From contig CAZQMG010000002.1 of NCBI GenBank assembly GCA_964594375.1, positions 1 to 35,278 on the forward strand: a stretch of 35,278 nt of DNA, given 5' to 3'. A program made the translations under genes and the position numbers. The notes below the pieces were generated by a model. That model did no database searches and was not told the origin of the DNA. It was given only the letters and a program-made list of their open reading frames with translations. The DNA comes from an uncultured Clostridia bacterium (GTDB lineage: Bacteria > Aerophobota > Aerophobia > Aerophobales > AE-B3A). This document shows positions 52 to 35,278 of this stretch, piece by piece (the first letter of the stretch is position 1; the number at the start of each line of letters is the position of its first letter).

Positions 52-99
52 ATGCGCTGCCTTGACTTTTATTATCGATTTGCCTAAAATTAAGAAGTA

Positions 100-353
100 C
101 CTCAGGACAATTTCTTCCGTCGCTGTATAGTAGCTTCTTATTTTTTCTACTCAGCTTCTCGTTTCGGGAAAGATATAAAAGACTTTGAAGGGGGAAACAT
201 CCCCCCTCAACGGCCTTCGGCCTGCTCCCCCCAAGTTCAAGAAAAGGCAGAGCATCGTCGCTTTGCTCCTCAAACAGTATATTTTTCTTTTTCCTCAACT
301 CGAAGCTTCGTTAAGGTTGCTCCTATAAGGCTTCTTCAGAAAATGTCCTTCGG
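100..353. repeat. Dispersed intergenic element, copy A: conserved 27-nt left end (100-126) and 29-nt right end (325-353) around a 198-nt hairpin-rich core
   Basis: Left end cctcaggacaatttcttccgtcgctgt is identical to 32176-32202. Right end ataaggcttcttcagaaaatgtccttcgg matches 32313-32341 with 1 mismatch. The cores are unrelated. The two ends are imperfect inverted repeats (CCnnAGGACAnTTTCT). Confidence 0.8.
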
Positions 354-409: not shown

Positions 410-1972
410 ATGGCCAATAAAGCCAAAATTGGATTTCTTGATTTTAATGATGAAAGAGAGCATGTGCTGGAAGAAACCTTCCAGAATGCCCAGGGGTTAA
501 AGAAAAATGTAGTAAGGACGTTGGAAAGGGTAGGGGGTATGGAGATTGTCGATTCAGCTGAATCGTTTAGCGGTTTTGACAAAATGGTCTGGCGAGTGGA
601 GATAGCCAGAAAACAGGCAAAAATATTGGCTGAAGCTGATATAGACGGCCTGATTCTTCACTATAGCCTATGGGCTTCGCCCCGATTGGCCAGGATAGCA
701 ACCCAGATTATCCTCAGAGAAAAAGAGAAAAAGAATAGAGTTATTCCTATTTTAATACTTACTAATCTAGCTCCTGAGCAGCCGGGAATGGTGGGTGGAA
801 TGGCTGCCGCCGGGGGCCTGGATCAACTGGGTATAGCGAATATAAGAATATGGAGCAGGAATATAGCCAATGACCCAGAAAAACTCAAGCAGATTGTGGC
901 ATTTGCCAGATTTGCTCAAGATAGAGCCAAAAGCTCTTCTTCTGCCGACGAGGTAGTTGAAAGACTACACGGTCAGATTTATGGAGAAATTGGTGGTAGG
1001 AGTATTCAAATCGTCACCGCCGAAGCTGACCCTCTTCAATGGGCTAAAATCTTTGGAGTCGATACTCAACCAATTGATCAATTAGAAATCATTAGAAGAG
1101 CGAGCCAGATGATTTCCTGGCGTGATGGAGTAAATAGCGAAATAACAGAAATAAGTGATAAGAGGATTAATAAGGCTTTCAATTTTCTCACTGAAAATGT
1201 AGAAAGTGTAAATTATGAAGATAAATTCACTGAAGATAAGCTCAAATACCAACTTGCTTGCTATTATGCTACTCAGGATATCATTGCCGAAAATGACCTT
1301 GATTTCATCGGTATCAAATGTCAACCAGAATTGAGTGAGTATCATGTAACCCAATGTTTAACTCAGGCTTTCAGTAATGACAGCCGAGGCCCTGCCGGTG
1401 AGAAGAAAGAAGTTGTGGTCTGCGCTTGTGAAGATGATAAAGACGCTGCTCTTACCCAACAGATAATGTATCTTTTGACTGGCAGACCAACTATGTTTGC
1501 TGACTTTCGATATCTGGATCCAGAAAGAAATATCCTTTACCTGGTAAATTGCGGTGCTCATACTCCCTGGTTTGCCACACGAAGCAGTAGGATTGAAGAT
1601 AATTTAGCTAAAATAAAGCTGGATAAACAAGCCTTTTTCTATGCTGCCTGTGGCGCAACGGTCAACTTTGATGCCGCACCTGGGCCAGTAACCGGAGCAA
1701 GGCTGGCAAGAAAGAATGGTAGATATTGGATGAATATAGTCCCCGGTGAGTTTGTGAAAAGACCGGCTAATGCTGTACTAACTACTCCCGGTTGGCCTAA
1801 TGCTTTTATGAAATCTAGAGTCCCTATGGAACAACTTTTCCGGGAGCATCCCTGTAACCATATGCAGCTGGTAGCTGGTGATTATGTGGCTGGTCTGGTA
1901 GAGGTATGTGAGAAGCTGGGGATAGGATATAAGGTGCAAGATAAGAATCTGGAGTATGAAAAAGTAGTTTAG
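410..1972 (+). CDS. L-fucose/L-arabinose isomerase family sugar isomerase
   Basis: 520 aa. AGGAG sits 9 nt upstream of the ATG. FucI-like catalytic block CACEDDKDAA...TMFADFRYL and C-terminal HPCNHMQLVAGDY domain. Substrate not assignable. Confidence 0.7.
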   Translation: MANKAKIGFLDFNDEREHVLEETFQNAQGLKKNVVRTLERVGGMEIVDSAESFSGFDKMVWRVEIARKQAKILAEADIDGLILHYSLWASPRLARIATQIILREKEKKNRVIPILILTNLAPEQPGMVGGMAAAGGLDQLGIANIRIWSRNIANDPEKLKQIVAFARFAQDRAKSSSSADEVVERLHGQIYGEIGGRSIQIVTAEADPLQWAKIFGVDTQPIDQLEIIRRASQMISWRDGVNSEITEISDKRINKAFNFLTENVESVNYEDKFTEDKLKYQLACYYATQDIIAENDLDFIGIKCQPELSEYHVTQCLTQAFSNDSRGPAGEKKEVVVCACEDDKDAALTQQIMYLLTGRPTMFADFRYLDPERNILYLVNCGAHTPWFATRSSRIEDNLAKIKLDKQAFFYAACGATVNFDAAPGPVTGARLARKNGRYWMNIVPGEFVKRPANAVLTTPGWPNAFMKSRVPMEQLFREHPCNHMQLVAGDYVAGLVEVCEKLGIGYKVQDKNLEYEKVV

Positions 1973-2012: not shown

Positions 2013-2072
2013 TGTTATGCGATGTAGTGACTGCGGTTTAGCAAGATAAATCGTCTTATTCAGAAATGAAAA

Positions 2073-2930
2073 TTACTTTTTCTTAATTACCAATCCATCA
2101 TAAGCTATCTCGTATCCATACTTTTTTCCATATTCAACTAACTCAGAATGTATGGGATTTCCTTCATGTGATATATGAGTGGCAAAAATTCGAGAATTCT
2201 TTTTTAACAGATTTTCTTTCCTCATCCTTTGTACATGTTCGATAAATTGGTTAGCATTCAGATGTCCTTCTCCATGAATATTCGGACCATAAGTATGATC
2301 AAGAACCACAATATCAAATTTAAGCTTCTTTTCATGAAAACCTTTCCATGTTTCTTCTGGAATCATATCAGTATCGACACCATAAAAAACAGTATAATCA
2401 TTTTCTGTAATGGTATATAAGAGTGAATCGACTGACTTATCATGGCTTGTGGGAAATGCCGTTATTTGATAGTTTCCCGCTTCAAAGGATTGGAGATATT
2501 TTGCGGGATGAACACTTATATTCATACGTTCTTGTTCTTTTTGATCAAGAAGATTAGTTACGCAACCTTCGTTTTTTAACATCTCCGACATCTTTCTGAG
2601 CGTCGCATTTGAAGCATATAGTTCAAGATGAGGAATATTTTCTACAGCATATTCTGGTATACGAGTAGAAAAATGTGATGCGTCAAAATGATCTGAATGC
2701 GAATGAGTTTGTAGGCAATATCGAATATCTGGCATAGAAATCCCATACATAAAAGAAGCGGTCATGATATCAGGTCCAAAATCTATCAATAGGTCTCGAT
2801 TGATAAGTAGGGATGATCTTTTTCTAAAATTTCGTCCACCGAGTTTACGGGCTTGTTCACACGCTTTGCATCGGCAAAACACCAAAGGATACGAGGTCGC
2901 TGCTGCTGTTCCCAAAAAAGTAATTTCCAT
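2073..2930 (-). CDS. MBL-fold metallo-hydrolase, PhnP-like phosphodiesterase architecture
   Basis: 285 aa. N-terminal Cys cluster CRCKACEQAR, HxHxDH motif THSHSDH, later THISHEG and C-terminal DG, laid out as in PhnP. Confidence 0.7.
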   Translation of the reverse strand: MEITFLGTAAATSYPLVFCRCKACEQARKLGGRNFRKRSSLLINRDLLIDFGPDIMTASFMYGISMPDIRYCLQTHSHSDHFDASHFSTRIPEYAVENIPHLELYASNATLRKMSEMLKNEGCVTNLLDQKEQERMNISVHPAKYLQSFEAGNYQITAFPTSHDKSVDSLLYTITENDYTVFYGVDTDMIPEETWKGFHEKKLKFDIVVLDHTYGPNIHGEGHLNANQFIEHVQRMRKENLLKKNSRIFATHISHEGNPIHSELVEYGKKYGYEIAYDGLVIKKK

Positions 2931-3138
2931 ATTGTTTATTTCCTATTGTGGTTATTTATGGGTAAAACGAAGCAGTCACTATTTTGCTTAACGTTCGTCC
3001 TGCGGGTACAAGAAGTTGCTGGAGCGAGGTACGAGCGGAAGTAATTTGGGTGAGCGACGATGGAGCGAGCCTTGTACTCGCTGTTATATGCAGTATTCGT
3101 GCTTCCTTTAGTTTTTCGATTGTTCTGCATCTATTGCT

Positions 3139-4017
3139 TTAGTATATCGCTTTAGCGTCCTCCGGAAGCTGTTTTATATGTTTAAGAAACTCTAATGCTC
3201 TTTTACCAGCTTCTTCAGCAAACTGAAAACCATATTCCTGTGCAACAGATTCTGCCGTTTTCTTAAACAGTTTATAGAATAGGAATAGAGAATTCCAGAT
3301 ATTGTCATAATTAGAATCAGTGTATGTCTGCTCAAATTCTTTCCAAATCTCTGGCTCCAAGTATTTTTGCAAATGCCTTCCCGCTTTCCCAATTGACTTT
3401 TTAAAGCCTGTCTTTATTCCAATGTCCCATTCAAACATATTAATAAGTGGTTTCCTTAGAACAACATCGATATAGGCTTTTAACAATGGCAGTTCCTTCC
3501 TCCAAATTGTCTTTGGAATATGTGAACCTAAACCAAATATAAACTCATCGCAGCAATCGTTAAACAGTTTCTCCGTTGGTTCCTTAATCAAATAGCTACT
3601 TTCAGATGGGTCTAAAAGATTAGGAATAATATGGTCTTTGTCTAACAAAACCTCTGTTAAACTGTCCTTCGTTAGTTCATCAATTCTGTTTATATTAAAA
3701 AAGGATAGATCAATACGGTTTCCATCTACGAATTGCATATTGTAATTATAACGACCGTCTCCTGCTGGAGGGGGATAAATCTTGTCTTCAGGCTTCTGTA
3801 TAATTATTGTTTCCCCGAAATGGGACAAAATATAATTTTCATCTTTAAATGGTTCAACATCAGTAACTAAATTTACTATGTCATAGTCTTGAAATATATC
3901 CTTCGTGGCATTTGGATTAACTCGGGATCCGTTCATCAAAACTGCACGAATACGATCGTCATTTTGGGCAAAACCAATAATTAAATCAATTATTTCTTTT
4001 TCTGTTCTCGTTTTCAT
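3139..4017 (-). CDS. ant(6): Aminoglycoside 6-nucleotidyltransferase (streptomycin adenylyltransferase, ANT(6)/AadK family)
   Basis: 292 aa, collinear with recalled ANT(6)-Ia/AadK: DDRIRAV..NGSRVNPN..DIFQDYDI, VEPF, QKPED, RIDL, DKD, CCDEF, GIKTGFKKSIGK, YDNIWNSLFLF. Confidence 0.8.
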   Translation of the reverse strand: MKTRTEKEIIDLIIGFAQNDDRIRAVLMNGSRVNPNATKDIFQDYDIVNLVTDVEPFKDENYILSHFGETIIIQKPEDKIYPPPAGDGRYNYNMQFVDGNRIDLSFFNINRIDELTKDSLTEVLLDKDHIIPNLLDPSESSYLIKEPTEKLFNDCCDEFIFGLGSHIPKTIWRKELPLLKAYIDVVLRKPLINMFEWDIGIKTGFKKSIGKAGRHLQKYLEPEIWKEFEQTYTDSNYDNIWNSLFLFYKLFKKTAESVAQEYGFQFAEEAGKRALEFLKHIKQLPEDAKAIY

Positions 4018-4185
4018 ATGATATTCATCCTGTTGTATTTAGCCCGAATATTGCATATAACTTAAAATAACCGAACTACTTCGTTTTATAGCACTTACTG
4101 CTTGATCATGATATGACCTTGATACTTTTTCACTCTCAAAAACCGACAAAATCTTTTTTAGAATATGTTCCGAGTGGGAAAAGCT

Positions 4186-4361
4186 CTAATGCTTTTATGA
4201 AATTCAAAGTCCCTATGGAACAACTTTTCCGGGAGCATCCCTGTAACCACATGCAGCTGGTAGCTGGTGATTATGTGGCTGGTCTGGCAGAGGTATGTGA
4301 GAAGCTAAGAATAGGTTATAAGGTGCAAGATAAGAATCTGGAGTATGAAAAAGTAGTTTAG
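4186..4361 (+). pseudogene. Orphan 3' fragment of the isomerase gene (last 58 codons; the ORF-track 4113-4361 frame begins in unrelated sequence)
   Basis: NAFMKFKVPMEQLFREHPCNHMQLVAGDYVAGLAEVCEKLRIGYKVQDKNLEYEKVV versus the C-terminus of the 410-1972 product; 4 aa differences. Confidence 0.85.
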
Positions 4362-4401
4362 AGTGAACTCATTCACGCTTTTCAAGATAGGAAATACTCA
4401 G
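4186..4401 (+). repeat. 216-nt direct repeat, copy 2
   Basis: See 1797-2012. Confidence 0.9.
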
Positions 4402-4493: not shown

Positions 4494-4519
4494 TAGAAAG
4501 GGACGTATTTCTGAATATT

Positions 4520-4556
4520 TACTCAAGATACGAGCAACCAGCAAGGGGCAACGAAG
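4520..4556 (-). repeat. Heptamer-phased trailer after tRNA-Pro (degenerate relative of the Ala/Leu trailer)
   Basis: Plus strand reads gatacga gcaacca gcaaggg gcaacga. It shares gctcgtatct with the trailers at 13803-13840 and 20054-20092. Confidence 0.6.
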
Positions 4557-4635
4557 TGGTCGGGGCGACCGGATTCGAACCGGTGGCCTCTTGCGCCCCA
4601 TGCAAGTGCGCTAAACCAGACTGCGCTACGCCCCG
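4557..4635 (-). tRNA. tRNA-Pro (anticodon GGG), CCA encoded
   Basis: Hand-folded cloverleaf: acceptor CGGGGCG/CGCCCCG, D stem GCGC/GCGC, anticodon stem CTTGC/GCAAG with loop ATGGGGC, T arm ACCGG-TTCGAAT-CCGGT, discriminator A, CCA. Confidence 0.9.
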
Positions 4636-5380: not shown

Positions 5381-6001
5381 TCAGGTTTTGACTTTTTCTC
5401 CAATTTTACTCTCCTCATTCCTCGAAAGCCTCTGTATATTATTTCTGTGTTTAAACAAAATAAAAAGGGCTGCTATTATACTTAAAAAAAGGTAAAGTCG
5501 AGTATTATTTCTCAGCCAGAAGACAAAGAAAGGGAGACTTCCTGCAGCCACCATTGAACCTAGGGATACATAGCGAGTTAAAGCTATAATCCCTACCATA
5601 ACGAGCAGGGATAAAAGAAAAGGGACAGGGGTAAGGGCTAAGAAGACGCCCGCTGTTACAGCTACTCCTTTTCCTCCTTTGAATTTTAGAAATATAGGCC
5701 AATTATGTCCAACTATAGATGCTAATCCGCCTATTCCACCCATTACTTGGCAGTCAATTCCCATGAGCTGCGCAAAGAAAAATCCTAAATAAACAGAAAT
5801 TATTCCTTTAGTTATATCTATAATCAATACTATAAGAGCCGGAAATGTTCCTATAGCACGCAAAACATTGGTAAATCCTATGTTCCCGCTGCCAAAATCT
5901 CTTACGTCTATTCCTTTAAAGGCTTTTCCTATAAGGTACCCGGAAGGAACAGAACCCAATAGATAGCAGGCTATTAGTATTAAAAATAAAAATATAATCA
6001 T
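5381..6001 (-). CDS. plsY: Glycerol-3-phosphate acyltransferase PlsY
   Basis: 206 aa, polytopic; GSGNIGFTNVLR, HNWPIFLKFKGGKGVA, HRNNIQRL. Confidence 0.9.
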   Translation of the reverse strand: MIIFLFLILIACYLLGSVPSGYLIGKAFKGIDVRDFGSGNIGFTNVLRAIGTFPALIVLIIDITKGIISVYLGFFFAQLMGIDCQVMGGIGGLASIVGHNWPIFLKFKGGKGVAVTAGVFLALTPVPFLLSLLVMVGIIALTRYVSLGSMVAAGSLPFFVFWLRNNTRLYLFLSIIAALFILFKHRNNIQRLSRNEESKIGEKVKT

Positions 6002-6004
6002 ATT

Positions 6005-7561
6005 TCAAAAGTTTTTTCTCAATTTCTCTTTTGTTTCTTCCCCAATGAAATCTCCTATTACAATTCCATCTTTTTCTGAAGAAGGGATGATGGTAATACT
6101 GTCTTTTCTCTTTCTAGGGGGCGTTCTTTGCCCTCCTTTCCTTGCTTCTTCTTCTTTTCTTTTTTTTCTTTTTGTTTGCATCAGCCTGCGAATACTAAGT
6201 CTAATTCGACGTTTCTCTCTATCAATTTCTACAATTTGTGCTTCTATGTTATCTCCTATTAAAGCAATCTTTTCTGGATGGGAGACATACTGCTCGTCCA
6301 ATTCCGAGACATGGATCATTCCATCTATGCCCGGCGCTAAATTGACAAAGACACCAAAATTAGTTATCTGTTGGACTTTACCTGAAATCATATCTCCTAC
6401 TTTATGTTTCTGTATGAGTTCTTTCCAGGGATCAGGCCTTGTCTGCTTTAAACCCAGAGAAATTTTTCTTTTTTTTGTATCAATATTTAATACTTTGACT
6501 TCCACTTCTTTTTTTTCTCCCAATATCTCTTTGGGGTGTTCTACTCGTTTATCCCAAGAAAGATCGGAAATGTGAATTAATCCTTCCAGTTCTTCTTCTA
6601 TTTCTACAAAAGCGCCAAAGTCGGTAAGATGAGTAACTCTTCCTGAAACTATGGAGCCCATCTCATATTTTTTTTCTACTTCTTTCCAGGGATCAGGTCT
6701 TGTCTGCTTTAAACCCAGAGAAATTTTCCCTTTTTCTCTGTCAAGTTTTAACACCTTTAGTTTTAGCTTGTCCCCTTTAGAAATGAGATATCCAGGATCT
6801 TTTATCCATCCCCAGGAAATGTTTTCTGGATAGACCAGTCCATCAATCCCCCCCAAATCTACAAAGATTCCAAACTTGGTTATGGAATTTACCTTTCCGG
6901 TGACAATTTGACCCTCTTCCAGGCTGTCTAGTATCTTTTTTCTTCTTTCTTCTTTTTTTTCTAAAAGTAAAATCTTTCGAGAGAGAACTATATTTCTTGA
7001 CTTTTTGTTTAATTCGATCACTCTAACGCTGATCTTTTCTCCTATAAATTTTTTAAGGTTCTCTCTTCTTGTTAAGCTTATATGGGAAGCGGGAAGGAAG
7101 GCGTCCAGTGAGTCTATTCTGGTTAGGAATCCTCCTTTTACCATCTTTTCTACCCGCACTACTATAGGTTTACTATATTTGAATGCTTCTTCGAATTTTG
7201 TCCACTCCAAACGGAAATCAGCCTCTTTCTTGGACAACAAAATATGATTTCCCTGACTTTTTGGCAAGACGTATACTTTCAGCGTTTTTCCTAATGGAAG
7301 AGCCTCTTCTTTTTTTCCGTTAAATTCTTCCCAGGGCATAAAGCCCTCCGATTTTGCCCCTATATCGAGCAAAATCCCTTCTTTGGTCGTTTGTACCACT
7401 TTAACTTCTATTATTTCTCCTCTTTTAGGGAAGGACAGGTTCTTACATTTCTGGATTATTTCAGCAAATTCCCCTGCTTCTTTCTCTTCCTCCCTTTCTT
7501 TCTCTCTTATTACTCTATCGGCGGCTTTGTCCAGAAGCCTTTCTTCTTTTGATTTAGACAC
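6005..7561 (-). CDS. rpsA: 30S ribosomal protein S1 (multiple S1 domains, basic C-terminal tail)
   Basis: 518 aa; repeated S1 OB-fold modules (G..V.G.V....FG.FV......G..H.S). Confidence 0.9.
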   Translation of the reverse strand: MSKSKEERLLDKAADRVIREKEREEEKEAGEFAEIIQKCKNLSFPKRGEIIEVKVVQTTKEGILLDIGAKSEGFMPWEEFNGKKEEALPLGKTLKVYVLPKSQGNHILLSKKEADFRLEWTKFEEAFKYSKPIVVRVEKMVKGGFLTRIDSLDAFLPASHISLTRRENLKKFIGEKISVRVIELNKKSRNIVLSRKILLLEKKEERRKKILDSLEEGQIVTGKVNSITKFGIFVDLGGIDGLVYPENISWGWIKDPGYLISKGDKLKLKVLKLDREKGKISLGLKQTRPDPWKEVEKKYEMGSIVSGRVTHLTDFGAFVEIEEELEGLIHISDLSWDKRVEHPKEILGEKKEVEVKVLNIDTKKRKISLGLKQTRPDPWKELIQKHKVGDMISGKVQQITNFGVFVNLAPGIDGMIHVSELDEQYVSHPEKIALIGDNIEAQIVEIDREKRRIRLSIRRLMQTKRKKRKEEEARKGGQRTPPRKRKDSITIIPSSEKDGIVIGDFIGEETKEKLRKNF

Positions 7562-10865: not shown

Positions 10866-10873
10866 TGAATTTA

Positions 10874-10934
10874 TTCCCTTTTTCCCCTCACCTCAATCCT
10901 CTCCCACAGGGGAGAGGGAAGGGAGAGGGGGTAA
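10874..10934. repeat. GGGGAGAGG hairpin element, copy 1
   Basis: ttccctttttcccctcacctcaatCCTCTCCCacaGGGGAGAGGgaagggagagggggtaa; about 90 percent identical to 32444-32497. Confidence 0.85.
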
Positions 10935-10935
10935 G

Positions 10936-11020
10936 TTCAACTATCTTGAACTATGTTTTTGAATTTCCTATGAATTTGGTTTTGAACTTGCTATGAGCAA
11001 TGAACTATGAACTATGAGCT
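10936..11020. repeat. Heptamer-phased array (ctatgaN family) abutting and including the ilvD stop codon
   Basis: ..ctatgag caatgaa ctatgaa ctatgag ctatttc.. in a constant 7-nt register. Confidence 0.75.
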
Positions 11021-12671
11021 ATTTCAATGTTGCCCCTTGACTAGCTGGTCCTACCAGCCGACTGTAACGGGCTAAATATCCTTCTTTTACGCCAGAGGGA
11101 GGCTTTTTCCAATTATCTCTTCTTTTCTTTAGTTCTTCTTCAGATAAGTTGATATTTAGAAGTCTTCCCGGGATATCAATAATAATCTCATCTCCATCTT
11201 GTAGAAGAGCAATGGGGCCTCCTACCTGTGCTTCAGGACAAATATGGCCAATACAAGGGCCTCTTGTTCCCCCGGAGAATCGTCCGTCGGTAATCAAGGC
11301 TACTGATTCGCTCAATCCCATTCCTGCAATAGTGGCGGTAGGGGAAAGCATCTCTCTCATCCCCGGACCTCCCTGAGGGCCCTCATAGCGAATGACAATA
11401 ACCTCACCTTCTTTTATTCTTCCTTCATAAATACTCTTAACTGCCTCTTCCTCGCTATCAAAAACACGAGCTTTTCCCCGGAAGTTTTTCATCTTTTCGC
11501 TTACGGCAGACTGCTTTACTACCGCTCCTTGAGGAGCAAGAGAACCGGTGAGTACAGCTATTCCCCCCTCTTGATTGTAAGGATTATCTAAACTCCTGAT
11601 TATTTCGTTGTCAACAATTTCTGCTTTCCGGGCGATTTCTTTTATAGGAATACCGGAAACTATGCAACGATCGGAGAGAAAATCAGTAAGTCGTTTTAAT
11701 AAAGCAGGGATTCCACCCGCCCATTCCAGGTCTTCCATAAAGTATTCCCCTCCCGGTCGCAGGCTAACTAGATGAGGGGTTTCTCTTCCTATTCTATCAA
11801 AATCGTCAAGAGATAGGCTGACTTTTGCTTCCTGAGCAATAGCCAGAAGATGGAGTACAGTATTACTGGAACCTCCTAGAGCCATATCCGCCCGAATAGC
11901 ATCTGTGAAAGCCTGGTTATTCATTATATCCCGGGGGAGAACATTTTCCTTAATCAAATCTATAATCCTCTCTCCGCTTTCATAGGCGAGCCTCTTTCTT
12001 TTGGCGGAGACAGCCAAAGCACAACCAGACCCAGTCAGGCTCATTCCCAGGACTTCCGTCAGGCAATCCATAGTGTTAGCTGTATATAAGCCCTGGCATG
12101 AACCGACTCCCGGACAAGCTTCTTCTTCTAAGGAATGAAGTTGTTCTTCATTTATTTCTCCCTTTTTGAGTCTGCCCACTGACTCATAGGAATCCCTCAC
12201 ATAAGAAAGTCTCTTTCCTCTCAATCTCCCCGAGAGCATAGGGCCAGCGGTAACAATAATGGTAGGGATATTTACCCGAGCGGCAGCCATAAGGGCACCA
12301 GGGGTTATTTTATCACAATTAGTAAGAAGAATAAGACCGTCAAAAGAGTGAGCTAGAGCTACGCTTTCAATAGAATCAGCTATCAGTTCTCGGGAAGGAA
12401 GGGAGTATCTCATTCCCATATGCCCCATAGCAATTCCATCACAAATAGCAGGAATGCCAAAGACAAAAGGATAACCCCCTCCTGACTCTACACCTCTTTC
12501 TATGAACCTCTCCAGGTCACGCATCTGAATATGGCCTGGAACTATGCTGCTGAAACTAGAAGCGATCCCTATAAAAGGCTTGCTTAAGGATTTTTTCGTT
12601 ACTCCTGTGGCGTAAAGTAATGCCCGATGAGGAGCTCGTTCGATTCCCTTTTTTATTTTATCGCTACGCAA
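11019..12671 (-). CDS. ilvD: Dihydroxy-acid dehydratase
   Basis: 550 aa; CDKITPG and [12 protein letters not shown] motifs; TTG start with GGAGGT 7 nt upstream. Confidence 0.92.
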
Positions 12672-12708
12672 TTTTTACCTCCAGGGTGAGATAAAAAACC
12701 CAAATATT

Positions 12709-12767
12709 GTAGAGGTCCGATTTATCGGACTTGTTAGCAAAGCGTGTTTCATAAATGAAACCTCTAC
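12709..12767 (-). promoter_or_regulatory. Three-way-junction / double-palindrome element in the ilvD leader
   Basis: Minus-strand RNA: GTAGAGG [GTTTCAT-TT-ATGAAAC] ACGCTTTGCTAACAA [GTCCGAT-AA-ATCGGAC] CCTCTAC, followed 10 nt later by GGGTTTTTT and the RBS. Confidence 0.45.
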
Positions 12768-12790
12768 TATATAGGATATCCCTCTTTTTT

Positions 12791-13091
12791 AGCGTATAGC
12801 GGGTAGCGTAGAGCGTATAGTAGAAAATGCAAAAACATAGGAGATAAGTTTATGGTTCATCGATAGAAACAACGATAACATGTTAATCAGTGAGCGAGTA
12901 GCACTCTCCTTTGGAGTGAGGGCAAAATTAACCATTTAACTAATTAACCAAGTTAACTAACGCGTTAGCAGGTCAATGAACAACGAACAATCAACTATGA
13001 ACAAAATGGTGAATTATGATTTTTTACTCCTAGGTTTAAGCTTTTCGCTTTGATGATTTATCCTATACGCTAAACGCTATCCGCTGCCGCT
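12791..13091. repeat. 301-nt spacer parsable as 43 heptamers in a single register, with inverted (AGCGNNT)4 terminal arrays
   Basis: agcgtat agcgggt agcgtag agcgtat ... accattt aactaat taaccaa gttaact ... tcaatga acaacga acaatca actatga ... tatacgc taaacgc tatccgc tgccgct. Confidence 0.8.
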
Positions 13092-13628: not shown

Positions 13629-13802
13629 TTCTTTTCCCTCCTTTTTTAGTTCTGTAATTTTTCCCTTCGTCTATCCAATATTCTAATGTAAAATGCCTTA
13701 TCATTAAACTGTCGTTCCTCTTAAATCGCAACATTGTAAAATGTACCTGATACTTAACTCGGCTTCGGATCCCGTTTTATGCTTATAAGTCTTTGTTTTG
13801 CC

Positions 13803-13840
13803 TTTACGAGATACGAGCGACGAGCAACTAGCAACAAATT
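13803..13840 (-). repeat. Conserved heptamer-built trailer immediately 3' of tRNA-Ala
   Basis: Minus sense after CCA: aatttgttgctagttgctcgtcgctcgtatctcgtaa; 34/37 identical to the trailer after tRNA-Leu. Confidence 0.85.
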
Positions 13841-13916
13841 TGGTGGAGGCAGGGGGACTCGAACCCCCGACCCCGTCCACGCCAAGGACGTGCTCTCCCA
13901 ACTGAGCTATGCCCCC
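13841..13916 (-). tRNA. tRNA-Ala (anticodon GGC), CCA encoded
   Basis: GGGGGCA acceptor with G3:U70, anticodon stem CGTCC/GGACG with loop TTGGCGT, T arm GGGGG-TTCGAGT-CCCCC. Confidence 0.9.
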
Positions 13917-13918
13917 TA

Positions 13919-14254
13919 TTACACTCTTTTTTCAGCGTCAGCCCATAATCTCTCCAACTGATAAAAATCTCTTCCTGATTTAGAGAAGATATGCACCACC
14001 AATGAACCAAAATCTAGAAGAATCCACAAATCATTGGTAAAATGCCTTCGGTTGAGTTGTTTTATTCCTTTTTCTTCTAGCTCTTTCTCCAGGGCTTGCG
14101 CAATACCTTTCATGTGCAGAGAAGAATCTCCAGTACATATAACAAAATAATCAATGATGGGAAGGATTTTTTTCAGGTTCAAAAGTACTACATCTTTTGC
14201 TTTTTTATCCTCAACTATTTTAATAGCCTTCTGCGCCAACTTTTGAGAAGTCAA
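13919..14254 (-). CDS. rsfS: Ribosome silencing factor RsfS (iojap)
   Basis: 111 aa; DYFVICTG.S..H..GIA..L; W.LLDFG..VVHIF....R.FY.LE.LW. Confidence 0.88.
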   Translation of the reverse strand: MTSQKLAQKAIKIVEDKKAKDVVLLNLKKILPIIDYFVICTGDSSLHMKGIAQALEKELEEKGIKQLNRRHFTNDLWILLDFGSLVVHIFSKSGRDFYQLERLWADAEKRV

Positions 14255-19965: not shown

Positions 19966-20053
19966 GCCGGGATGGCGGAAGTGGTAGACGCGCATGGTTG
20001 AGGGCCATGTGGACTTTTAGTCCTTGGGGGTTCAAGTCCCCCTCCCGGCACCA
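19966..20053 (+). tRNA. tRNA-Leu (anticodon GAG), long variable arm, CCA encoded
   Basis: Acceptor GCCGGGA/TCCCGGC, anticodon stem CATGG/CCATG with loop TTGAGGG, variable arm TGGACTTTTAGTCC, T arm GGGGG-TTCAAGT-CCCCC. Confidence 0.9.
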
Positions 20054-20092
20054 TAATTTGTTGCTAGTCGCTCGTTACTCGTATCTCGTAAG
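20054..20092 (+). repeat. Conserved heptamer-built trailer immediately 3' of tRNA-Leu
   Basis: taatttgttgctagtcgctcgttactcgtatctcgtaag; see 13803-13840. Confidence 0.85.
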
Positions 20093-20164
20093 AAACTAAA
20101 CATCCCTTAGAAACAAAGGGGGATTTGAAGCCAAAACTGAAGAGTGAATTGATAACTATGAACT

Positions 20165-20196
20165 AACAAGAGAGGGGATTACTCCCCTCTCTTGTT
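20165..20196 (+). terminator. Strong stem-loop, probable terminator of the trk/tRNA-Leu transcript
   Basis: AACAAGAGAGGGGA-ttac-TCCCCTCTCTTGTT, a perfect 14-bp stem running into TTGTTTAT. Confidence 0.6.
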
Positions 20197-30075: not shown

Positions 30076-30145
30076 ATGGTGAATCGTATCTCATGAATGG
30101 TGAATCGTTTTTCACTATACGCTATCCGCTAAACGCTATCTGCTA
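30076..30145. repeat. Ten-unit heptamer array inside the operon
   Basis: atggtga atcgtat ctcatga atggtga atcgttt ttcacta tacgcta tccgcta aacgcta tctgcta. It contains the stop and last codons of the 649-aa ORF. Confidence 0.8.
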
Positions 30146-32078
30146 TGAAAAGCGGTATTATCGCCAGGCCAATGAAAGCACAATTGAGCGACTGATAACT
30201 CTTTACTAAAGTTTGAGGATTTTCCTCAAACCAGGCCAATAATACAGGAGATTTTGCAGCTATATTTTTCAAAGGTCCTGCAAAATTCCACATCTGGTCA
30301 AGCACCTTTGTTTTTAATTCAATTCGGGGATCTTTGGATCTAACTTCTTCATTGTAGAGTGAAGAGAAGGAAGGTAAAGTCTCCCTCTCTTTTAAATTAA
30401 GCGTTAAATCAGCTTCATTGAAGGCAGGAAGTTCTTTCAAGAAAGAGCTATGCTCGCCATATAAAAAGAATAAATCCTGCAAAGGAAAAGAATTCAAGTT
30501 TTGTAGGCTCACCGTTATAATTTCTTTGCTTCTGGTGGTTTTTGTTATCAGCGAGAAAGGTAGGATAGTTTCCAGACGAAATAGATGAAAAGACCAGGCA
30601 GAGCTATCAGAAGACGAGGTCCAGCGAATCTTTCCCTCAGGGAGAAAGACTACTAAATCTTTGAAGAATTCTCGCTCCCTGGAAGGTGCTGAAAGAGCAG
30701 TTACAAAAGAGATCTTCTTATCAAATTCCAGTTCTACCGATTGGTAGTAAGGAGAAAAAAGGGTAAAATAGTTTTCCGTTTTGGCCAAAGAGCCTCCTTC
30801 TTTTTTATAAAAGATGCTTACCTGCCCTAAAAATGTGTTCTCTCTTCGCATCTTCATCCCCCAAAAAAGAGAAAAAATCAGAGCAGACAGAACTACAGTC
30901 AGACTCAGCCCGATCCTTAGTTTCCATCCCAATTTTCTTTTTTTCAGCCACCAACAGAAAAAACCAATGACCACAAGATAGACTAACAGAAAGAAGCCTA
31001 TTTCTCTTCGCCCCAGGTAAAACCTGCCCGGCCAAAGAATAGAGTGCTCAATAAGGGGATCCAAAATACCCCGGCTAAACATAGAAAAATTGGTTTCCTC
31101 CTCTAATATTTCCGCCCAGAAATAGGATTTTCCTGGCCAGTCCCTAAAAGGATGTTGGAAGAAATCAAGAGCTAAAAACAATATCTTCCCCGACCCCACT
31201 TTTAATTCTACCAGCAAGGGGATGCCCTCCTCCTTTATAAGAACGTCTCCCTTTTGCCACTGGCTATTCCACAGCTCAACTTTCTGGAAATCGGCAGTAA
31301 AGACTCCGTATCTACTCTGCAAGGAAGAAAATGAAGAATTCAGATAAATTTTCTCCAGGGATTCCAGCGGAAGTAAATGAGAGACTAGAGAAGATTTGAA
31401 TTTCCCGTATCCACCTTTTGCCGTAATAATCAGTCTTCCTCCTATAGAAAGCCATTCTTCTATAGCCTTTTCCTGTTCAGAAATTAATTCAAGTGACTCG
31501 ATGTCATCCAGGATTAATGCCTGAATTGCATCGTAACCTATCCAGTGGCTGGGTAGTTTGTTCGGATCGGTGTAAAGCACCTGCCTTATTCTTTTTATCT
31601 TTGCTTGGGCCAGAAAGTCAAATCCAGCGTGAGTCTTGTTAACTACCAGGATAAATCCCTTATCCATATAAAATGGCTGGATTGGAATCTCTTTTTTCAG
31701 CAGACTCTCTTTTCCGCTAATTAGCGAGACCTGCAAAGGATAGACATCCGTTTCCAGAAGTACATTGACTTGATAAAGCTTTCTCGAGGAAGAGGGAAGG
31801 AAAACAGGAATAGAATAGATGATTTCGGTAGGATCTTGTTCGAGAGGATTTCCTCTGGCCACTTTAATTAATAGAGTTCCCTCTAAGGAAGGACCTCGAT
31901 TTTCAAGAAAAACTCTTAGAGGTGTCCAGCTCCCGATTCTGTAAAATCCCTCGAAGCCTATCTCCACCTTCATTTGCAGAGGGGAAGTTGCCTTCGCCTC
32001 GAGAGCCATCAGTAGAAGAAAAATTCCCAGATCAGTAATGATCTTCCTGGTCCACTGCTTAGACGTCATATTTTCCAC
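30129..32078 (-). CDS. Hypothetical exported/membrane protein (first gene of the MoxR/VWA operon)
   Basis: 649 aa; signal/anchor ..LGIFLLLMALEAKA; YDAIQALILDD..WLSIGGRLIIT block suggesting a GATase1-like fold; two central TM helices. GTG start at 32078 or ATG at 32069. Confidence 0.55.
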   Translation of the reverse strand: MENMTSKQWTRKIITDLGIFLLLMALEAKATSPLQMKVEIGFEGFYRIGSWTPLRVFLENRGPSLEGTLLIKVARGNPLEQDPTEIIYSIPVFLPSSSRKLYQVNVLLETDVYPLQVSLISGKESLLKKEIPIQPFYMDKGFILVVNKTHAGFDFLAQAKIKRIRQVLYTDPNKLPSHWIGYDAIQALILDDIESLELISEQEKAIEEWLSIGGRLIITAKGGYGKFKSSLVSHLLPLESLEKIYLNSSFSSLQSRYGVFTADFQKVELWNSQWQKGDVLIKEEGIPLLVELKVGSGKILFLALDFFQHPFRDWPGKSYFWAEILEEETNFSMFSRGILDPLIEHSILWPGRFYLGRREIGFFLLVYLVVIGFFCWWLKKRKLGWKLRIGLSLTVVLSALIFSLFWGMKMRRENTFLGQVSIFYKKEGGSLAKTENYFTLFSPYYQSVELEFDKKISFVTALSAPSREREFFKDLVVFLPEGKIRWTSSSDSSAWSFHLFRLETILPFSLITKTTRSKEIITVSLQNLNSFPLQDLFFLYGEHSSFLKELPAFNEADLTLNLKERETLPSFSSLYNEEVRSKDPRIELKTKVLDQMWNFAGPLKNIAAKSPVLLAWFEENPQTLVKSYQSLNCAFIGLAIIPLFIADSV

Positions 32079-32141: not shown

Positions 32142-32169
32142 ATTCTATGTTAACAAGTCTAATTGTCAA
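32142..32169 (-). promoter_or_regulatory. Candidate promoter of the 7-gene MoxR/VWA operon
   Basis: TTGACA (reverse complement of 32164-32169), 16 nt, TAGAAT (reverse complement of 32142-32147). Confidence 0.5.
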
Positions 32170-32175
32170 CAAATG

Positions 32176-32341
32176 CCTCAGGACAATTTCTTCCGTCGCT
32201 GTTATTGGTTAATTTGTTAATTGGTTAAATGGTTAATTCCCCTCACCCTATGCCTCTCCCCCAGGGGAGAGGAGCACTACTCACCACTCACCAATTAACC
32301 ACTAACCATTACATAAGGCTTCTTCAGAAAATATCCTTCGG
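32176..32341. repeat. Dispersed intergenic element, copy B (conserved ends, 110-nt core of heptamer words plus hairpin copy 32239-32272)
   Basis: Ends match 100-126 and 325-353. Core: gttaatt tgttaat tggttaa atggtta .. CCTCTCCCC-ca-GGGGAGAGG .. tactcac cactcac caattaa ccactaa ccattac. Confidence 0.8.
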
Positions 32342-32408: not shown

Positions 32409-32443
32409 GATTACTAACTAGATAGTATAGGAATTTCCTTTTT

Positions 32444-32497
32444 CCCCTCTTCTCAATCCTCTCCCCACGGGGGAGAGGGAAGGGAGAGGGGGGATAA
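32444..32497. repeat. GGGGAGAGG hairpin element, copy 3
   Basis: tttcctttttcccctcttctcaatCCTCTCCCCacgGGGGAGAGGgaagggagaggggggataa. Confidence 0.85.
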
Positions 32498-35084: not shown

Positions 35085-35156
35085 AATAGTTAAAAATTTA
35101 AAGCGTAAACCTAAAGCCATAATTCAAGATTTAAAACTTTTGAGTTTTAGGTTATG

Positions 35157-35219
35157 GTTTTTCGTTTTGCGCTTTTCGCTTTGCGTTTTTTCTATCCGCT
35201 ATCCGCTATCCGCTGTCTT
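35157..35219. repeat. Nine-unit heptamer array including a perfect (CTATCCG)x3
   Basis: gtttttc gttttgc gcttttc gctttgc gtttttt ctatccg ctatccg ctatccg ctgtctt. Confidence 0.85.
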
Positions 35220-35278
35220 TTAAAGGATGGGTAGATATTGTTCCAACTCATACGACGTAACGCGAGAACGATAATTCT

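Follow-up and report, generated by a model that had tools for sequence, protein, structure and literature searches.

Organization of the locus

This study concerns the short sequences (trailers) that follow the tRNA genes in a 35,278-nt stretch of DNA from the phylum Candidatus Aerophobetes (contig CAZQMG010000002.1; the whole of this stretch is referred to here as the window). The window carries three tRNA genes, each of which is joined to the 3' end of an upstream operon (Table 1). As the initial annotation had it, tRNA-Ala follows the rny-nadD-rsfS operon at a distance of only 2 nt, counted from the rsfS stop codon. tRNA-Leu lies 11 nt beyond the trkA stop codon of the trkH-trkA operon, and the 5' end of tRNA-Pro overlaps the stop codon of a merR-like open reading frame (ORF). 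The order operon-tRNA-trailer, which had been reported to recur, does occur three times in the window. The tRNAs for alanine and leucine have 18 of 19 T-arm bases in common. Extending the window through its end proteins gained no further tRNA genes, and no Rfam family other than tRNA matched the window, trailers included, at or above its gathering threshold. In our view, the trailers are best read as heptanucleotide-repeat junctions of a recombining tRNA-flank cassette, a reading to which we assign a probability of roughly 0.5.

Structure of the trailers

The Ala and Leu trailers each consist of five tandem heptamers followed by AA, with the consensus nnCTCGT and a first unit of the form AAYTYGT. 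At up to three mismatches, the Ala 37-mer (AATTTGTTGCTAGTTGCTCGTCGCTCGTATCTCGTAA) has one other match in the window, which is the Leu trailer with three mismatches; this is the 34/37 identity, in the same orientation relative to the tRNA, that had first been noticed, and no match was found in any of 100 shuffled sequences (chance expectation 0). The position first reported for the Leu trailer is correct, but the trailer does not directly follow the CCA as had been supposed, since it begins 1 nt later, after an extra T at 20054. The degenerate version behind tRNA-Pro was also borne out, with 26/35 identity when aligned without a heptamer deletion. The spaced pattern GTTGCNNNTNGCTNGTNNCTNGTATCT, derived from the alignment, has three matches in the window, including the Pro trailer, where none is expected. 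The heptamer phase is equally secure: at least three consecutive nn[CT]TnGT units are found in the 35 kb only in the Ala and Leu trailers, compared with a shuffle mean of 0.06. The five heptamers span 13806-13840(-) and 20055-20089(+), and thus contain the three or more tandem copies that define heptanucleotide repeats. The five heptanucleotides of the trailer make up a degenerate tandem array of a lineage-specific family.

As RNA, the trailers are unstructured, with minimum free energies (MFE) of -2.7 kcal/mol (z +0.68) for Ala and -1.5 kcal/mol (z +1.07) for Leu. No intrinsic terminator (a GC-rich hairpin with a U tract) was found inside them; the sole terminator-like site nearby is the hairpin 80 nt beyond the Leu trailer, which resembles the T-arm-like end of the C-unit described below. 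The idea that the trailer is a structured RNA or a terminator was rejected on the basis of the MFE values, the z-scores and the terminator scan. The window trailers are single direct arrays, and neither a palindrome nor an inverted partner, as required of REP or REPIN sequences, was found for them. A search of the window for a second copy of the 3' end of tRNA-Ala, tRNA-Leu or tRNA-Pro found none. Beyond the arrays lie two remnants of a sequence box, at 13758-13773 on the Ala side and at 20118-20134 on the Leu side. The latter is overlapped by a small hairpin which is a relic of the start of the C-unit, the remainder being absent.

Table 1. Features of the window and of related loci. Positions are those of the window except in the last five rows.
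Feature	Position	Strand	Remarks
tRNA-Pro(GGG)	4557-4635	-	ARAGORN, Rfam; CCA encoded
tRNA-Ala(GGC)	13841-13916	-	ARAGORN; Rfam tRNA 63.5 bits; CCA encoded
tRNA-Leu(GAG)	19966-20053	+	ARAGORN; CCA encoded
tRNA-Pro trailer, diverged	4519-4556	-	CTTCGT TGCCCCT TGCTGGT TGCTCGT ATCTTGA GTAA
tRNA-Ala trailer	13804-13840	-	AATTTGT TGCTAGT TGCTCGT CGCTCGT ATCTCGT AA; directly after CCA
tRNA-Leu trailer	20055-20091	+	AATTTGT TGCTAGT CGCTCGT TACTCGT ATCTCGT AA
Degenerate box copy (GGGATCCGAAGCCGAG)	13758-13773	-	Alignment and motif scan; in relatives the box begins the 129-nt C-unit RNA
Small hairpin ATCCC...GGGAT	20102-20134	+	Overlaps 5' box GGGGGATTTGAAGCCAA
Terminator-like hairpin GAGAGGGGATTACTCCCCTCTCTT	20170-20193	+	
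Period-7 array	10986-11027		
Period-7 array	12788-12820		
Period-7 array	12971-13005		
Period-7 array	13057-13086		
Period-7 array	30109-30147		
Period-7 array	32274-32311		
Period-7 array	35144-35223	.	TTTTCGY units, then three CTATCCG
C-unit, 129 nt (L219)	12650-12778		Outside the window
C-unit, 129 nt (L219)	6172-6300		Outside the window
C-unit (L001)	2912-3040		Outside the window
C-unit (L010)	6346-6592		Outside the window
C-unit (L233)	561-688		Outside the window

Trailers in related lineages

The RNase Y encoded in the window is 97% identical to that of the metagenome-assembled genome 'Candidatus Aerophobetes bacterium Ae_b3a', and the Aerophobetes orthologues of RNase Y in public data form a graded identity series. 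Orthologous loci (designated here by L numbers) were fetched via RNase Y homologues, and the clades were ranked by RNase Y identity. The gene order rny-nadD-rsfS-tRNA-Ala...merR-tRNA-Pro is kept in all of the fetched loci. At RNase Y identities of at least 77% (the window, L001, L004, L010, L219-221, L236, L238-243, L222/223 and L244/245), a heptamer array follows each tRNA-Ala, tRNA-Leu and tRNA-Pro seen. The same holds for the tRNA-Pro(cgg) of L144, the source metagenome of which also contains a contig encoding the exact Era protein of the window. In the clades at or above 77% the array starts 0-3 nt after the CCA, and rarely 10 nt after it. Its first unit is mostly AAYTYGT-like (AATTTGT, AATTCGT or AACTCGT), the exceptions including AAATAGT behind the tRNA-Ala of L222 and the arrays that start about 10 nt after the CCA.

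These clades contain 26 nn[CT]TnGT arrays of at least three units, 16 of which abut a tRNA end or its copy; the remaining ten lie after dnaN, ilvD or trkA stop codons, or upstream of merR. The association between arrays and tRNA ends is therefore strong, but it is not exclusive. Arrays of the window's family are also found antisense, behind protein genes and within operons. The adjacency would be coincidental, it had been argued, if other tRNAs lacked the trailer and if the motif were equally frequent away from tRNAs. The outcome is mixed: an array is present at every tRNA that was seen in the clade, but the motif itself is not restricted to tRNA flanks.

In more distant lineages the trailer is of another kind or is missing. 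The Ala trailer of the 74% lineage (L233) is made of TAAGnnn units. In the 70% lineage (L234), tRNA-Ala and tRNA-Leu have one common but different trailer, composed of GGATTAGA units followed by three copies of AGCTCAT. The 69% lineage (L224/226) has no array at the orthologous tRNA-Ala and tRNA-Pro, in an unchanged RNase Y operon context. As a separate observation, the tRNA-Leu(gag) of L233 (753-839) is without a fully encoded CCA (...CCCGGCAC followed by TAGG), which is encoded in all of the closer lineages.

Inserted modules at the tRNA 3' flanks

Compared with the window, L001 has an insert of 172 nt, and L010 one of 340 nt, at the same place between the Ala trailer and the shared flank AAAGGCAAAACA. 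Both inserts end with GGGGG-AGAAGA, the exact last 18-20 nt of tRNA-Ala and then a second heptamer array. At tRNA-Leu, the layout is A-B-C-B-D in L219 and A-B-D, without C, in the window. Element B of L219 comprises the final 18 nt of the tRNA, the array, the small hairpin and GGGGGATTTGAAGCCGA; its two copies make up a mismatch-free direct repeat of about 100 nt. Element C, about 95 nt long, is a unique module. In L220 two C-B units are present at this site with a period of 197 nt, and the number of C-unit copies at tRNA-Leu is accordingly none in the window, one in L219 and two in L220. The tRNA-Ala site is empty in the window, L004 and L243, the last of which has a trailer nearly identical to that of the window, and it is occupied in L001, L010, L219 and L238. 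Units from the Ala side and the Leu side are homologous (80-86% identity), each one terminating with the 3' end of the tRNA that it follows.

A direct repeat with the tRNA 3' end at the distal border is present in L001, L010, L219-221, L233, L238-242 and L144. In L144 a 2.6-kb restriction-modification (methylase/endonuclease) cassette comes after the box and is bounded by CATCCCGACCA+CAAATTCGTTGCT repeats, in which the end of tRNA-Pro (CATCCCGACCA) is joined to the array. The two array types that surround the C-unit, X and Y, have swapped positions between L001 and L238-L242. Inverted terminal pairs of arrays, both starting with AATTCGT, surround other small insertions: behind tRNA-Pro in L222, between trkA and tRNA-Leu in L244, and between dnaN and recF in L144. 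An inverted array pair is also present in L126.

These comparisons show that the tRNA 3' flanks of the clade are polymorphic junctions. Modules bounded by a tRNA end and an array have been acquired, deleted, duplicated or put in a different order at these points, also among near-identical strains, with breakpoints in the repeated tRNA 3' end and at the ends of the arrays. At both Ala and Leu, the window has an empty or relic allele which retains the tRNA, the array and a remnant of the box.

The C-unit

The alignment of seven C-units supports a five-helix structure with 98% of cells paired. Eleven pairs have changes on both sides, a number that was reached in none of 500 shuffles; slid controls gave 0-2. 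In helix 1 the 5' box pairs with the 3' strand of the T-stem of the duplicated tRNA end. The C-unit of L010 contains two extra hairpin insertions of about 65 nt. When the window and 120 metagenome loci were searched with a covariance model of the C-unit (R1), no copy was detected. The C-unit has no match in Rfam, its score against tmRNA_permuted being only 18-19 bits compared with a gathering score of 47.

The start GGGGGAUU...GAAGCCGAC, the T-arm-like hairpin and the CCUCCACCA end of the C-unit had prompted a transfer-messenger RNA (tmRNA)-like reading, which we rejected. In addition to the low Rfam score, ARAGORN reports no tmRNA, and the same 5' box also precedes the Leu-type 3' end, with the acceptor strand of which it cannot pair. 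Covariation instead pairs the box with the T-stem strand.

One extension of these observations, which we regard as rather doubtful, is that the array and the C-unit together make up a previously undescribed tRNA-linked RNA-gene cassette, the footprints of which would be the trailers of the window. A structured noncoding RNA of this kind would borrow the T-stem 3' strand, the acceptor strand and the CCA of the neighbouring tRNA, would be co-transcribed with it and would be matured by the tRNA 3'-end machinery. It could multiply or move by recombination at the shared 18-nt end, and the array would then be an obligatory spacer or a recombinase-arm element after each CCA end.

Trailer turnover between strains

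Between the window and L010 or L219 the flanking genes are 93-97% identical, and the orthologous Leu trailers match at only 27/35 positions (L010) and 25/35 positions (L219). Trailers within one genome are more alike, with 32/35 identity between Ala and Leu of the window, 32/35 between Leu and the second Ala trailer of L010, and 30/35 for the corresponding pair of L219. A likeness that is greater within genomes than between strains amounts to concerted evolution or co-replacement. The 70% lineage shows the same sharing within the genome with different sequences. L222 and L223 differ in one array by exactly 14 nt, which is two heptamers.

Five of nine independent Logan contigs that carry the window's exact RsfS stop precisely at ...GCTCGTATCTCGT (...ATCTCGT), the last heptamer. 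Such contig ends imply that the assembly graphs branch there, and hence that variants co-exist which diverge at the end of the array.

A proposed recombining tRNA-flank junction

The initial annotation had offered three functions for the trailer: a 3'-processing or termination signal, a protein-binding site, and an insertion target or scar linked to tRNA genes. The last of these is the best fit to the comparative data, because in relatives the inserted modules, which include a copied tRNA 3' end, have the trailer on either side, and because the trailer is swapped or replaced between near-identical strains. In the arrangement that we propose, the cassette would open with 11-18 nt from the tRNA 3' end, followed by the heptamer array and by the small hairpin with the box GGGGGAUUYGAAGCCGA. 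An optional 129-nt C-unit or gene cargo would follow, and then the second copy of the tRNA 3' end and a second array. The array behind the tRNA would thus be the tRNA-proximal junction of the cassette. The likeness of the Ala, Leu and Pro trailers could reflect one array family that travels with the modules, or ectopic recombination that homogenizes the tRNA flanks. Recombination might be site-specific and carried out by a tyrosine-type integrase encoded in trans, with the heptamers as possible arm-type binding repeats, or it might take the form of a Campbell-type homologous exchange. At the RNA level the array would simply be an unstructured 3' trailer that is trimmed off.

Several observations weigh against this proposal. 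The gene tables of about 25 related loci contain no Phage_integrase or transposase Pfam hits, and to our knowledge a 7-bp spacing is unusual for arm-type integrase sites. In L001 and L238 the identity of the repeats ends at the CCA, which places the crossover in the tRNA end and not in the array. Sharing of trailers within a genome is not universal, as the Ala and Leu trailers of L243 are of different types. Arrays are found on both the 'element' and the 'host' sides, beside the stop codons of protein genes and inside operons, and on the sequences compared an origin as general intergenic filler is inseparable from an origin in an element. Finally, the comparison covers only four tRNA species, and the sample includes no complete genome of the clade. 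A candidate mechanism in which the trailer is the crossover 'stutter' of a recombinase with a 7-bp overlap was discarded, given where the repeat identity ends in L001 and L238.

Period-7 arrays beyond the tRNAs

A lag-7 detector identifies nine arrays in the window. Eight are wholly intergenic or overlap the end of a gene by a few nucleotides; the array at 30109-30147 reaches 19 nt into the 3' end of ORF 30129-32078. Some arrays begin at stop codons, and antisense arrays complementary to the trailers exist in the genome. The density of period-7 arrays is 2.5-5.5 per 10 kb in the window, L010/L219, L222 and L144, a clade sample of only about 150 kb, compared with 0.22 per 10 kb in controls of 1.3 Mb from distant genomes. 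This enrichment of more than tenfold in the present Candidatus Aerophobetes clade has no counterpart at other periods of 5-11 nt. Period-4 counts are near those of period 7, yet they are only about 1.5-3-fold above the controls. At least five heptamer families are represented, with units that include CTATCCG, TAGCGnn, CTCATAG/GAACTAT and TTAACCA. Because period-7 arrays fill other spacers as well, heptamer phasing is a property of the noncoding DNA of this lineage and not of the tRNA trailers alone. When metagenomes were scanned for CTnGTnnCTnGTnnCTnGTATCTCGT, more than 120 loci were recovered, mostly (ATCTCGT)n-type arrays, often with an inverted partner, and only two of these loci lie behind a tRNA. 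Scans of viral contigs for the box and for the array gave nothing relevant.

These data bear on a simpler explanation, in which the arrays are neutral simple-sequence filler that expands by slippage until it meets constrained sequence, such as a CCA end or a stop codon, with no function and no link to the modules. The likeness between the Ala and Leu trailers would then be due to recent gene conversion only. The variety of unrelated heptamer families in many spacers, some starting at stop codons, is in keeping with this, as are the predominance of metagenome arrays away from tRNAs and the 14-nt difference between L222 and L223. Between lineages, moreover, the periodicity is kept while the sequence is not. 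According to PMC4679880, which cites Mrazek, heptanucleotides rank first in frequency among the long simple repeats of many bacteria, and slippage is a proposed origin. Filler does not, however, explain why arrays lie on both sides of inserted modules together with copies of the tRNA end, or why array types swap positions. It also leaves unaccounted for the AAYTYGT-like first unit that recurs in most cases and the inverted terminal pairs of the same array family around insertions. We therefore consider this explanation unlikely, although of the rivals to a recombining junction it is the one we take most seriously.

Possible roles as RNA or as a binding site

A role at the RNA level would make the array an unstructured spacer or platform for 3' maturation, or an entry site for Rho or an RNase, located behind every CCA-ending stable RNA in polycistronic precursors (the tRNAs, the C-unit and the neighbours of signal recognition particle (SRP) RNA). 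The position of the array within 0-3 nt of the CCA, behind both the tRNAs and the CCA-like end of the C-unit, would agree with such a role, as would the lack of secondary structure and the presence of unrelated array families at the same position. The fusion of the tRNAs to the 3' ends of operons also means that they need endonucleolytic release. In addition, an array separates tRNA-Ser from an SRP-RNA-like gene in L126 and L194. The trailer sequence is nevertheless replaced between strains that are 93-97% identical and by unrelated heptamers in other lineages, and there is no array at the orthologous tRNAs of the 69% sister clade, whose RNase Y operon context is the same. The same arrays occur antisense, after protein genes and within operons. 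G and C are about equally frequent in the trailers, which are not rut-like, and there is no terminator at the trailer. That an array also follows the C-unit is a trivial result of the duplication of the repeat. The suggestion that the trailer is a 3'-processing or termination signal consequently found no support, and we judge an RNA-level role in general to be improbable.

We note that the arrangement in L126 (about 1-330) and L194 (about 1300-1550, reverse strand) consists of tRNA-Ser(gga), an array, a run of 7-9 A residues, an inverted array and SRP-RNA-like sequence, so that in another lineage an array hairpin parts two stable-RNA genes. A further configuration is seen in L132 (metagenome contig Ga0209594_1032665, reverse strand, about 780-1080), which comes from an unrelated GC-rich organism. 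It contains tandem units of about 125 nt, each with a partial tRNA 3' end (T-arm, acceptor strand and CCA), a spacer and an ATCTCGT-type heptamer array.

Five tandem units with a common consensus and a fixed orientation relative to the tRNA might also be an operator or binding array that acts on neighbouring genes, for a DNA- or RNA-binding protein such as a ribbon-helix-helix repressor that recognizes tandem heptads or a cold-shock-type protein of which each molecule occupies one heptamer. Heptamer repeats affected promoter activity in Nostoc (bioRxiv 10.1101/2022.06.06.494920), and CspB binds heptamers with one protein per unit, as discussed in PMC4679880. The arrays, however, lie downstream of genes and not at promoters, and no candidate binding protein is linked to them in any locus. 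Their sequence varies between lineages and even between the two tRNAs of L243. We consider this possibility to be very unlikely.

Comparison with known repeats and elements

Heptanucleotide arrays of unresolved function have been described in cyanobacteria, Beggiatoaceae and Geobacter (PMC4679880, PMC2700814, bioRxiv 10.1101/2022.06.06.494920). The arrays reported here resemble the short tandemly repeated repetitive (STRR) sequences of cyanobacteria, the TAACTGA repeats of marine Beggiatoaceae and the four- and five-unit elements of Geobacter metallireducens in being short 7-nt arrays (2-6 or more units) that are intergenic, abundant, lineage-specific and present as several families per genome. 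They differ in belonging to the phylum Candidatus Aerophobetes, and in that the trailers abut the CCA and join direct repeats of the tRNA end, whereas most descriptions of the known repeats place them upstream of start codons. As STRR sequences were defined in (heterocystous) cyanobacteria, the present arrays are the same kind of repeat but not STRR proper.

The modules share with the attL/attR-bounded elements that integrate at tRNA genes, including islets and cis-mobilizable elements, a partial tRNA 3' end (from the T-loop or the acceptor stem) at the far end of the insert. Presence/absence and tandem copy-number polymorphism, restriction-modification cargo and an intact tRNA gene are further points of agreement. 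In contrast to those elements, no integrase was seen, the inserts are only about 130-340 nt in length and carry a structured RNA module, related modules are found at different tRNAs, and the repeat may reach about 80 nt past the tRNA into the array. The likeness to REP, BIME, REPIN and miniature inverted-repeat transposable element (MITE) sequences lies in the short noncoding repeats just 3' of genes, which occur as singletons or inverted hairpin pairs and are rearrangement hot spots. Unlike these, the trailers are tandem heptamer arrays and not palindromes, those of the window are singletons, and no RAYT or transposase was identified. The 3'ETS-leuZ of Escherichia coli is a functional 3' external transcribed spacer of a tRNA that acts as a sponge for small RNAs. 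The trailers are like it in their position directly downstream of a tRNA, from where they would be co-transcribed and released by processing. In the literature covered, we found no description of the combination seen here, namely a CCA-abutting array shared by different tRNAs, within direct repeats of the tRNA end, together with a 129-nt RNA module that covaries and makes use of the duplicated tRNA strand.

Several bacterial phyla commonly contain heptanucleotide arrays; here the arrays are tied to a defined, polymorphic junction, the 3' end of tRNA genes and copies of it, and adjoin a small, strongly covarying structured RNA. Public metagenomes contain occupied and empty alleles side by side, along with duplicated and re-ordered ones. 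The system therefore lends itself to asking whether such arrays are recombination substrates, protein-binding arms or processing spacers, and how micro-islands without an integrase move in an uncultured phylum. It also carries a warning for annotation, as repeats common to tRNA 3' flanks break assemblies at these points.

Other repeated elements

A direct repeat of 216 nt (95% identical; 1797-2012 and 4186-4401) brackets a 2.4-kb segment beside tRNA-Pro. The repeat corresponds to the 3' end of a fucose-isomerase-like ORF (410-1972) plus 40 nt. The segment between the copies (2013-4185) looks like a Campbell-type island, and it encodes a metallo-β-lactamase-fold protein (2073-2930; Pfam Anti-Pycsar_Apyc1/Lactamase_B_2) and a nucleotidyltransferase (3139-4017; Pfam Adenyl_transf). 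In the 77% clade secD directly follows tRNA-Pro. In L219, a second copy (about 83% identity) of the box, the terminator and the 3' end of an outer-membrane-protein gene is located 2 kb from tRNA-Leu (3870-4150 versus 5990-6100). The two copies bracket a PhdYeFM-type antitoxin island that is absent from the window.

Two further families of repeats were noted. The first is a MITE-like element with the conserved ends CCTCAGGACAATTTCTTCCGTCGCTGT ... CTTCAGAAAATRTCCTTCGG, which is present in the window (92-353 and 32168-32341), in L144 (5113-5320) and behind the tRNA-Leu trailer of L236. Its interior is variable and often contains inverted heptamer or octamer arrays around a central hairpin. The second is a repeated intergenic element of 40-60 nt with the hairpin CCTCTCCC-ACA-GGGGAGAGG (families D3/D4), located at 10873-10931, 32228-32267 and 32433-32492.

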